From Naegleria gruberi (lineage: Eukaryota): DNA of 1,728 nt. Positions 2 through 1,728 of this stretch are shown piece after piece (within the stretch, counting starts at the first letter, position 1; each line of letters begins with the position of its first letter). The translations under genes were made by a program, and so were the position numbers. Below the pieces are notes generated by a model, which saw nothing but the letters and a program-made list of their open reading frames with translations, did no database searches and had not been told where the DNA came from. The stretch lies in assembly GCA_000004985.1 (NCBI GenBank), contig GG739336.1; one strand, 5' to 3'.

Positions 2-880
2 GAGGATCCCCCATCCACTTTCTACAATGAATTGAGAGTTGCTCCAGAAGAACATCCAGTCTTGTTGACTGAAGCTCCTTTGAATCCAAAGGCCAACAGA
101 GAAAAGATGACTCAAATCATGTTTGAAACCTTCTCAGTTCCAGCAATGTATGTTGCTATTCAAGCTGTCTTGTCCTTGTATGCTTCTGGTAGAACTACTG
201 GTATTGTTTTGGACTCTGGTGATGGTGTCTCTCACACTGTTCCAATTTATGAAGGTTATGCTTTGCCACACGCCATTTTGAGATTGGATTTGGCTGGTCG
301 TGACTTGACTGATTATTTGATGAAGATTTTGATGGAAAGAGGTTACTCATTCAATACTACTGCTGAAAGAGAAATTGTCAGAGATATTAAGGAAAAGCTC
401 TGTTATATTGCTTTGGACTTTGAAGCTGAAATGAAGGTTGCTGCTGAATCATCCTCTGTTGAAAAGTCATACGAATTGCCAGATGGTAATGTCATTACTG
501 TTGGTAATGAAAGATTCAGATGTCCAGAAGTCTTGTTCCAACCTAATTTCATTGGTATGGAAGCTGCTGGTGTTCATGAAACTACTTTCAATTCAATTGG
601 TAAATGTGATATTGATATCAGAAAGGACTTGTATGGTAACGTTGTCTTGTCTGGTGGTACTACTATGTTCGAAGGTATTGCTGAAAGAATGACCAAGGAA
701 TTGACTGCTATGGCTCCTGCCTCAATGAAGATTAAGGTTGTTGCTCCACCAGAAAGAAAGTACTCTGTCTGGATTGGTGGTTCCATCTTAGCGAGCCTTT
801 CGACCTTTCAGCAGATGTGGATAACAAAAGAGGAATACGAAGATGCCGGTCCAGGTATTGTCCACAGAAAGTGTTTCTAA
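2..880 (+). CDS. Actin, 5'-partial (window begins inside the gene). The in-frame translation from nt 17 ([39 protein letters not shown]...) through the C-terminal ...[38 protein letters not shown] aligns with conventional actin from about residue 89 to residue 375; the track ORF 32..880 begins at Leu94. Nucleotides 2-16 stay in frame but encode EDPPS where actin has the conserved KIWHH.
   Basis: Seen in sequence: a continuous 282-codon ORF ending at TAA 878-880. It carries near-complete actin hallmarks ([111 protein letters not shown]). Codon usage is almost entirely the yeast high-expression set (TTG Leu, AGA Arg, GGT Gly, GTT Val, GCT Ala, CAA Gln, GAA Glu, AAG Lys). No GT...AG intron interrupts the frame in the covered region. 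The gene symbol is left blank because the divergence makes it unclear whether this is the canonical housekeeping actin or a paralogue. Confidence 0.93.
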
Positions 881-1016
881 TTATTTTATTCGAAACATGT
901 TAATATTTAGATTGAGTGTAGTTCAATAACTACAATCAAGTTTGATGATATTTCTTTTTATTAAGAAGTTCTTTGCGAGTTTGTAAATGTAAAATAATAA
1001 TTGATTTATTAATTGA
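881..1016. terminator. A 136-bp AT-rich convergent intergenic spacer that must hold the 3' UTRs, poly(A) and termination signals of both genes. It contains yeast-type efficiency/positioning-like elements (TTATTTTATT 881-890, TAATAT 901-906, CAATAA 924-929, AAATAATAAT 992-1001, and TTTATT/AATAAA on the minus strand near 1005-1010).
   Basis: Seen in sequence: the region between the two stop codons is about 80% A+T and rich in TA/AATAA-type motifs. Yeast 3'-end formation uses degenerate UA-rich efficiency elements and A-rich positioning elements (established knowledge). Exact cleavage sites cannot be read from the sequence. Confidence 0.5.
917..934. other. Small perfect hairpin in the actin 3' UTR: TGTAGTT-CAAT-AACTACA (7-bp stem, 4-nt loop).
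   Basis: Seen in sequence: 917-923 is the reverse complement of 928-934. The element is short and in AT-rich DNA, so it may be chance. Confidence 0.25.
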
Positions 1017-1728
1017 TTACTTGGAGTGTTTCTTTTTCGATTCTTTCTTGGAAACTTTTTTCTTACTGACCTTTTTCTTCTTGCTATCAGTTTCCGAAGA
1101 AGAATCATCACTGTCTGACTCGACATGTTTCCTCTTGTTGTTTTTCACCTTCTTACTAGATTTCTTGGCCTTCTTGTTTGCTGAGCTAATTGCTTCACCA
1201 AGCTCTTTTTGGTGGGCGTTGGCAATTGTTTGTCTTGTCCTTTGTTTAGACTCATTCTTTGCCAAACGCAGCTCTTGTTGTCTTGTTGTAATGGCTTCTG
1301 AAATGTCTTGAGGAATTGAATTTAAAGATATGGTTTTGAGTAATAATTTTAAAATACCATTATTCTTCTCAGTGTTGTCAAAGGTAACATATTTACCTGC
1401 CAGCTCGTGCAAACTCTCTTCAGTCAATGTCAGTAATCCCCTAGCTAATGATTGTCTGGCTTCTGAATCGTGCTTAATGTACACACCTCCATACTCTTCT
1501 AAAAAACCATCTATACCTTGAATCTGTTCTAATTGCTTTCTCACTTCAAGAGTTCTGAAAAGCATATAACGATTTTTCATGAAATAACAGCGAGACTTAA
1601 TCTCGACCTCTGCATATCCACCGACAATAGGTTTCCCATGTGGTTCAAAACCATTCTCTCCTTTTTTGTATTCAACCATTTCATACTCTGACGAGGAGTG
1701 AACCTTTAATTCCATGTATCTTTCTGGA
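1017..1728 (-). CDS. Hypothetical nuclear/nucleolar-type protein of at least 232 aa. It has a structured N-terminal region of about 145 aa, a predicted helical/coiled middle (ITTRQQELRLAKNESKQRTRQTIANAHQKELGEAISS), and a lysine-rich, Ser/Asp-punctuated C-terminal tail (NKKAKKSSKKVKNNKRKHVESDSDDSSSETDSKKKKVSKKKVSKKESKKKHSK). The first ATG is at 1713-1715, but the frame (…SRKI-MELKV…) stays open to the window edge at 1728, so the true start may lie upstream of the window. Stop codon TAA (revcomp of 1017-1019).
   Basis: Seen in sequence: a 699-nt ORF on the minus strand with no in-frame stop between 1715 and the window end, convergent with the actin gene. The composition is protein-like and distinct from the AT-rich spacer. 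Codon usage is yeast-like but less biased than actin (mixed AAA/AAG, TTA/TTG). The C-terminus has basic NLS-like runs flanking an acidic serine cluster (SDSDDSSSETDS) that fits the casein-kinase-2 consensus S/T-x-x-D/E. Family assignment is inference only; I see no confident match to HMG-box, SRP14, Rpa34 or Loc1 sequences that I can recall. Confidence 0.7.
   Translation of the reverse strand, partial: PERYMELKVHSSSEYEMVEYKKGENGFEPHGKPIVGGYAEVEIKSRCYFMKNRYMLFRTLEVRKQLEQIQGIDGFLEEYGGVYIKHDSEARQSLARGLLTLTEESLHELAGKYVTFDNTEKNNGILKLLLKTISLNSIPQDISEAITTRQQELRLAKNESKQRTRQTIANAHQKELGEAISSANKKAKKSSKKVKNNKRKHVESDSDDSSSETDSKKKKVSKKKVSKKESKKKHSK
1021..1140 (-). repeat. Low-complexity purine-rich (minus-strand) coding repeat for the K/S-rich tail. 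It includes an internal near-tandem duplication KKKVSKK / KVSKK (aag aag aaa aag gtc agt aag aaa aaa gtt tcc aag aaa).
   Basis: Seen in sequence: the plus strand reads as pyrimidine-rich runs (ttctttttcgattctttcttggaaacttttttcttactgacctttttcttcttgc...), that is AAG/AAA/TCx codon iterations on the coding strand. Confidence 0.5.

Follow-up and report, generated by a model that had tools for sequence, protein, structure and literature searches.

Within an unplaced scaffold of the heterolobosean amoeboflagellate Naegleria gruberi, a long open reading frame (ORF) on the minus strand faces the 3' part of an actin gene, and the locus raises the question of what this ORF encodes. A sequence-only reading, which implied a yeast origin for what is in fact Naegleria DNA, had seen in it a compact N-terminal domain of an under-described protein family, followed by a helical linker and a charged tail. 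The window (the whole stretch of DNA that was analysed) is the complete 1728-bp unplaced scaffold that carries NAEGRDRAFT_77000, and it is made up as follows:

12..880, plus strand: actin gene (3' part) next to the ORF, with 100% protein identity over 98% of the query to N. gruberi NAEGRDRAFT_55094
881..1016, no strand assigned: AT-rich spacer of 136 bp (23–29% G+C) between the convergent stop codons
1017..1727, minus strand: ORF of 236 codons plus stop (stop codon at 1017-1019), still open at the contig edge

The ORF and its annotation

The minus-strand ORF is real. In 2000 shuffles of the region, the longest open frame had a maximum of 180 codons and a mean of 78, so an ORF of 236 codons is no chance feature. 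No frameshifts or stops were found within it, and G+C at the three codon positions is 0.42, 0.32 and 0.37, a coding-like pattern. It is convergent on actin, as had been proposed, with the actin coding sequence on the plus strand and 136 bp between the two stop codons, a spacer that presumably contains both 3' UTRs.

The first ATG of the frame lies at 1713-1715 and gives a product of 232 aa, identical to one database entry, NAEGRDRAFT_77000 of N. gruberi (XP_002668090.1, EFC35346.1, UniRef D2W6F6), named "predicted protein" or "uncharacterized protein". The product is already deposited and uncharacterised, and the ORF is an annotated gene, not a newly found one; a literature search on NAEGRDRAFT_77000, XP_002668090, D2W6F6 and EFC35346 returned no paper that mentions any of them. 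Only 13 bases precede the ATG, and these are in frame and without a stop (PERY before the Met), base 1727 belonging to the last full codon of the frame in the window. Because the ORF is open to the contig edge, the N-terminal status given to its domain is insecure. Residue numbers are not those of the annotated protein: they are counted here from the first in-frame codon (PERYMELK...).

The actin neighbour and the quality of the scaffold

The actin frame (2..880, plus strand) encodes the last 292 residues of an actin, which Pfam recognises as PF00022 (E 5e-112). Homology to the N. gruberi actin mRNA starts at base 12, and the preceding bases 2-11 (GAGGATCCCC), which we take to be pUC18/19 polylinker, are identical to that sequence as far as its SmaI blunt half-site. 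The actin frame is shifted at 15/16 by a 1-base deletion (CATC-CAC versus CATCACAC in the actin mRNA). Taken together, the polylinker and the deletion give the left scaffold end the look of a low-quality Sanger clone end that was left untrimmed, and suggest that the scaffold rests on very few reads.

Further along the actin gene, the stretch from 788 to 832 (actin codons 263-277) differs in codon usage from the rest: 11 of its 15 codons (TTA GCG AGC CTT TCG .. CAG CAG .. ATA ACA AAA GAG) either do not occur among the first 260 codons or make up <10% of synonymous use there, and that earlier stretch contains only 6 codons of this class. Against an actin mRNA contig (L005), this stretch shows dense, purely synonymous differences, including TCA to AGC, and its flanks are about 95% identical. 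It looks like a mosaic, either the boundary of a gene-conversion tract between paralogous actins or the wrong joining of reads that come from two actin genes. A sub-threshold Rfam match to mir-3533 (554-637, plus strand; 35 bits against a gathering cut-off of 104, E 4.8e-5) lies wholly in the actin coding sequence and was dismissed; since this "miRNA" family is presumably actin-derived, the match is no feature of this locus.

Anatomy of the predicted product

The supposed globular part of the product, residues 1-123, carries a net charge of -4 and is followed by a linker and a tail in which basic and acidic stretches alternate:

1182..1358, minus strand: linker, residues 124-182, predicted to be helical (AlphaFold2 long helix at 140-183, pLDDT about 59-74)
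1116..1181, minus strand: first polybasic block ANKKAKKSSKKVKNNKRKHVES, residues 183-204, net charge +9
1074..1115, minus strand: DSDDSSSETDSKKK, residues 205-218, the acidic serine cluster with the three lysines that begin the second basic run
1020..1073, minus strand: second polybasic block KVSKKKVSKKESKKKHSK, residues 219-236, net charge +9

The acidic serine cluster (D205-S215) reads DSDDSSSETDS, and the second basic run spans K216-K236. Within the tail, residues 204, 209 and 211 each open an [ST]xx[DE] site, and residues 185, 192 and 216 a K[KR]x[KR] motif. The tail thus has the polybasic, acidic-serine, polybasic order described for it previously, with +9 on residues 183-204, the serine cluster at 205-215 and +9 over 219-236. 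Low-complexity tails of this alternating kind are typical of nucleolar and chromatin proteins, and that of the ORF likewise alternates polybasic runs with a phosphorylatable acidic serine cluster, but the likeness is one of composition only, with no homology to such a family in Pfam or the PDB. The sole tandem repeat in the window is a 17-base unit, TCTTGTTG, present twice. A sub-threshold Rfam match to SNORD50 in the tail-coding region (E 0.22) was dismissed.

AlphaFold2, run on the single ORF sequence, gave a poor model, with a mean pLDDT of 46.6 and nearly all of residues 35-139 below 50. The best-scoring stretch is the helix at 140-183, which bears out the helical linker; the compact folded domain supposed to precede it found no such backing. 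Beta hairpins were placed at residues 3-36, at low confidence.

Search for relatives

Pfam was scanned with the whole ORF and then with residues 1-124 and 124-236 apart. For residues 1-124 no family appeared at E<=10, and none passed its gathering threshold, ABC_tran (PF00005) and ABC_tran_Xtn (PF12848) included; the sub-threshold Pfam matches to PurT_C, RR_TM4-6, GEMI5_RBS and PFF1_TM fall only on the helical and low-complexity part and were set down to chance. Sequence searches of Pfam, NCBIfam and the PDB gave nothing significant, in agreement with the earlier statement that the protein matches no recognised family. The HMG box, SRP14, Rpa34, Loc1 and Srp21, which that reading had rejected from the letters, were likewise absent from the Pfam scans (E<=1 or E<=10) and from the PDB. 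A match of residues 105-143 to a viral L-protein in the PDB phmmer search (E 0.56) was treated as chance.

In a word-indexed search of 5.8e9 proteins, the ORF product matched itself alone, and an exhaustive HMMER phmmer search with residues 1-150 against 1.84e9 cluster representatives also returned only the self-match. Both the word-indexed collection and the library of representatives are drawn from the same source of about 15 billion proteins. An actin search of the former retrieved proteins of N. fowleri, N. lovaniensis and Willaertia magna, together with several N. gruberi actins from large scaffolds; as the collection thus includes Naegleria and Willaertia proteins, the absence of relatives of the ORF is informative. 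No orthologue was found among the N. fowleri, N. lovaniensis and Willaertia proteins of the searched collections, an exact-sequence look-up across public assemblies found no other contig and no second copy, and a scan of JGI metagenome contigs gave 440 pattern matches, of which 0 were confirmed.

Synteny was examined in N. lovaniensis and N. fowleri, at nine actin loci taken together with their 6-kb flanks. A tblastn search with the ORF detected no counterpart in this set (best E 0.6), so the gene order proposed as a check is not shared by these loci, and the convergent ORFs without Pfam match that do lie downstream of their actins encode unrelated membrane or proline-rich proteins. By these sequence comparisons, the ORF is an orphan even within the genus Naegleria. 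The sequence-only reading had itself held that a lack of conservation in related genomes would point to a spurious or species-specific ORF, and since only the ORF itself was found among 1.84e9 representatives, a species-specific ORF is indicated; the under-described family is reduced to a single orphan sequence.

Two arrangements were seen at the actin loci of the other species. One actin copy in both N. lovaniensis and N. fowleri has a convergent gene on its 3' side (L006, 7499-10528, minus strand; L010, 7294-10140, minus strand), which encodes a protein of about 950-1010 residues without Pfam match, with a proline-rich stretch and, at its end, a hydrophobic C-terminal segment; the two species share this conserved gene, which has no relation to the ORF of the window. 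Directly 3' of several actins of these species lies the gene for ARPC4, a subunit of the Arp2/3 complex (L007, L013 and L014, about 7400-8400, plus strand). Actin-ARPC4 is a conserved linkage of two functionally related genes.

Weak similarity to ABC-F proteins

Beneath the conventional thresholds, one coherent similarity emerged. The PDB phmmer search with residues 1-150 listed three chains at E<=10, and the best two were ABC-F proteins, LsaA (residues 416-480, E 0.077) and YbiT (468-523, E 0.31), matched at the equivalent place at the end of the second nucleotide-binding domain. The top NCBIfam match, NF011646, is the equivalog for YbiT-type ABC-F ATPases and was matched at positions 470-523 of 530 (E 0.018). 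With database-corrected E-values of 0.018-0.31, no single one of these searches is conventionally significant.

Profiles were built from the eight domains of the four E. coli ABC-F genes, each cut so as to start 35 residues ahead of the signature motif and to stop where the domain ends (8 segments), and from these segments plus the ABC-F fragments retrieved with that alignment (21 sequences). Aligned with hhalign, the ORF gave P 1.9e-4 against the 8 segments (probability about 47%) and P 4.8e-4 against the 21-sequence profile, with hhalign probabilities of 32-48% overall. In hmmsearch against the ORF and 5000 composition-matched shuffles, the ORF ranked 1 with the 21-sequence profile (13.5 bits), 2/5001 with the 8-sequence profile (13.2 bits) and again 2/5001, in an unchanged register, when YbiT was left out (12.0 bits); for each of the latter two profiles, 1/5000 shuffles equalled the score of the ORF.

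The alignments to these profiles cover about residues 65-121, in which FLEEYGG-VYIKHD-SEARQSLARGLLTL-...-GKYVTF is set against FL..Y.Gt.i.ISHDR.FL..vAt.I..L..G....Y.GNY..Y. The segment and the motif positions are:

1365..1532, minus strand: ABC-F-aligning segment, residues 66-121, from just past the D-loop to the domain end
1467-1475, minus strand: KHD on the H-loop SHD, in all ABC-F alignments
1380-1397, minus strand: GKYVTF on the ABC-F terminal motif GNYxxY, in all ABC-F alignments
1614..1628, minus strand: IVGGY at the place of the ABC signature LSGG(Q/E/W), residues 34-38, from the ungapped register test and BLASTP against Uup NBD1
1551..1568, minus strand: YMLF-RT at the place of Walker B hhhh-DE, residues 54-59, from the same two comparisons

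The H-loop (I/V)SHD(R) and the terminal G-N-Y-x-x-Y/F of ABC-F proteins have their equivalents in IKHDS and GKYVTF. At the upstream motifs far less is left: of the signature, IVGGY keeps the two glycines only, with Ser and Gln lost; of Walker B, the hydrophobic strand YMLF is kept and Arg and Thr replace the catalytic Asp and Glu; and the D-loop PTNHLD is occupied by LEVRKQ. These upstream residues were assessed by a register test, in which the downstream alignment sets an ungapped register and residues 33-65 are scored on the profile positions from signature to D-loop. They score -8.9, against -25.7 +/- 6.8 for their own shuffles (p = 0.010), and 5/202 other placements reach that score. BLASTP against Uup NBD1 independently produced one 92-residue alignment that follows this very register, with IVGGY on LSGGW, YMLF-RT on VLLL-DE, KHD on SHD and GKY on GNY, and 4/8 of the E. 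coli domain segments align to the ORF in it as well. No eukaryotic ABC-F chain appeared in the PDB phmmer search at E<=10, although the PDB can be expected to contain such chains (eEF3, New1, Arb1 and ABCF1).

Combining the database-corrected E of about 0.02-0.08 with the register p of 0.01, we consider it probable, though not proven, that the ORF is homologous to an ABC-F domain from its signature to its end. The statement that the domain matches nothing therefore holds as far as significant families are concerned, and fails in that there is one coherent weak match, to the ABC-F part from signature to C-terminus. In place of a new compact domain, the ORF probably encodes an ABC-F derivative that is truncated and has degenerate motifs.

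Nearly the same residues attract a second family. Archaeal uS9 models of NCBIfam match residues 60-119 (TIGR03627, E 0.038; NF001749, E 0.11), and with an E-value of 0.038 over the aligned segment this counts against the ABC-F assignment; on the helical linker, PurT_C of Pfam reaches E 0.018 (15 bits against a cut-off of 26.7). A divergent uS9 homologue, or a member of another weakly matched family of this sort, is nevertheless very improbable. The scores lie far under the curated cut-offs (14.3 bits against 162.75 for TIGR03627) and each match is limited to one library. We reject uS9 because it lacks support from both Pfam, where Ribosomal_S9 gives nothing at E<=10, and the PDB, which is rich in uS9 chains and returned none at E<=10.

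The ABC-F likeness could also be due to chance, the ORF being a complete, species-specific nuclear or nucleolar protein of 232 aa that starts at the annotated Met and has an unrelated, possibly new fold; in essence this is the sequence-only reading with its family taken away. The public annotation begins at that Met, there is no significant family match, and the composition of the tail is typical of nucleolar and chromatin proteins; moreover, 1/5000 shuffles attains the ABC-F score of the ORF, and AlphaFold2 gives residues 3-36 beta hairpins, not helices. Such a small protein, however, would have its start forced by the contig end, as the frame is open at the edge 13 bases before the ATG, and AlphaFold2 shows no confident compact domain. 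The ABC-F signal, for its part, repeats across distinct ABC-F proteins in one register throughout, and the register test on non-overlapping residues was passed at p = 0.01. We regard this alternative as possible but somewhat unlikely.

Origin and possible function of the product

Our preferred explanation, to which we give a little less than an even chance, is that the ORF represents the 3' end of a lineage-specific N. gruberi gene which evolves fast and encodes a catalytically dead, ABC-F-derived protein with a coiled-coil and polybasic extension. The folded part of the ORF would descend from the second half of an ABC-F nucleotide-binding domain, from the signature to the end. It appears to have retained residues of structural importance (the signature GG, the hydrophobic strand of Walker B, the His-Asp of the H-loop and the terminal G-x-Y-x-x-F), whereas those for ATP hydrolysis (the signature Ser and Gln, the Walker B Asp-Glu and the D-loop) would be gone. 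With these lost, the domain would not be a working ATPase site: if the ABC-F homology is real, it could neither hydrolyse ATP nor complete the site of a partner, and the product would be a pseudo-ATPase.

The region of an ABC domain from the signature to its end comprises only some strands of the RecA-like sheet and cannot fold without the Walker A half. Since half an ABC domain is not self-contained, the gene should continue upstream, beyond base 1728. If the homology is real and the gene does run past the contig edge, the annotated Met is probably not the true start and would be an artefact of the scaffold end.

The C-terminal extension would consist of a long helix and then a polylysine tail interrupted by the acidic serine cluster. 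The analysis shows the ORF, the absence of relatives, the weak similarity to ABC-F in one register, the state of the motifs and the make-up of the tail; from these we infer descent from ABC-F, 5' truncation and all of the functions proposed here. The product may act as a scaffold without catalytic activity, its helical and polybasic extension binding RNA or ribosomal or nucleolar particles, or may localise to the nucleolus; the polybasic extension may supply nuclear targeting, and phosphorylation of the SDSDDSSSETDS serine cluster could tune the charge of the bipartite basic tail.

Several observations sit uneasily with an ABC-F derivative. The catalytic motifs of ABC-F are absent from the ORF, AlphaFold2 places hairpins in the first ~30 residues where a helical subdomain is expected before the ABC signature, and there is no orthologue among the N. 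fowleri, N. lovaniensis and Willaertia proteins, which is odd for a functional gene. The loss of the catalytic motifs also agrees with a non-functional relic or by-product of assembly, that is, a decaying duplicated ABC-F fragment or an unconstrained ORF that survives on an unplaced scaffold of low coverage and was called a gene merely because it is open. In the same direction point the unplaced contig of 1728 bp, its untrimmed pUC polylinker at bases 2-11 and 1-base deletion against the actin mRNA at 15/16, the stretch near the end of the actin gene whose foreign codon usage suggests a mosaic, and the lack of an orthologue, paralogue or second copy of the ORF in the collections searched. Neutral divergence sufficient to erase nearly all ABC-F similarity, however, should have broken a frame of 236 codons in DNA of 36% G+C, and the ORF is free of internal frameshifts and stops and has coding-like G+C by codon position (0.42/0.32/0.37). 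An intact frame despite deep divergence favours constraint or recent origin over a neutral relic, and we consider a relic unlikely.

A further outcome, and a quite unlikely one in our estimate, is that the gene is either a live, N. gruberi-specific but catalytically dead paralogue of an ABC-F translation factor, changed beyond recognition and working as a scaffold that binds ribosomes or the nucleolus with a coiled coil and a phospho-regulated polylysine tail, or an orphan gene with a new fold. Should the catalytic motifs of the second domain all have been lost and the gene still kept by selection, it would rank among the rare "dead" ABC-F proteins, and if both ABC-F descent and function are true, a free-living heterolobosean would be home to an ABC-F paralogue without catalysis. 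The gene could then serve as a case study of the speed at which lineage-specific genes drift from a universally conserved ATPase fold. As matters stand, the significance of a truncated hypothetical protein on an unplaced 1.7-kb scaffold, without relatives, is small. The practical value lies mainly in annotation: NAEGRDRAFT_77000 is probably 5'-incomplete, and its scaffold carries untrimmed vector and a mosaic actin 3' end.

Comparison with known ABC-F proteins

If the preferred ABC-F derivation is followed, residues ~26-121 of the ORF are collinear with the bacterial ABC-F proteins YbiT, LsaA, Uup, YheS and EttA from just before the signature to the domain end. In common with them, the ORF would keep the signature GG, the hydrophobic Walker B strand, the post-D-loop helix (FLEEY.G), the H-D of the H-loop and the ABC-F-specific terminal G-[NK]-Y-x-x-[YF]. 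It differs from them in having other residues in place of the signature Ser/Gln, the Walker B Asp-Glu and the D-loop, and in a similarity of only ~13 bits (23-34% identity). Counterparts of Walker A and the Q-loop, as well as of the first domain and the linker between the domains, would lie off the contig, beyond base 1728. A charged helical region follows the ABC-F-like part, as it does after domain 2 of YheS and Uup, whose E. coli sequences have long charged helical regions beyond that domain. The serine/acidic/lysine tail, in contrast, is absent from every ABC-F protein retrieved here.

For a lysine-rich tract in such a position, the closest likeness is found in eEF3, New1 and eEF3L, to which the ORF bears no sequence similarity that was detected in the PDB search at E<=10 (eEF3 and New1). 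In eEF3 and New1, the C-terminal extension after domain 2 contains a polylysine/arginine tract of 20-25 residues, which in eEF3 falls in the eEF1A-binding region (PMC6723617). The ORF likewise has a lysine-rich tract of ~20 residues C-terminal to its ABC-F-like domain, here split in two by the acidic serine cluster.
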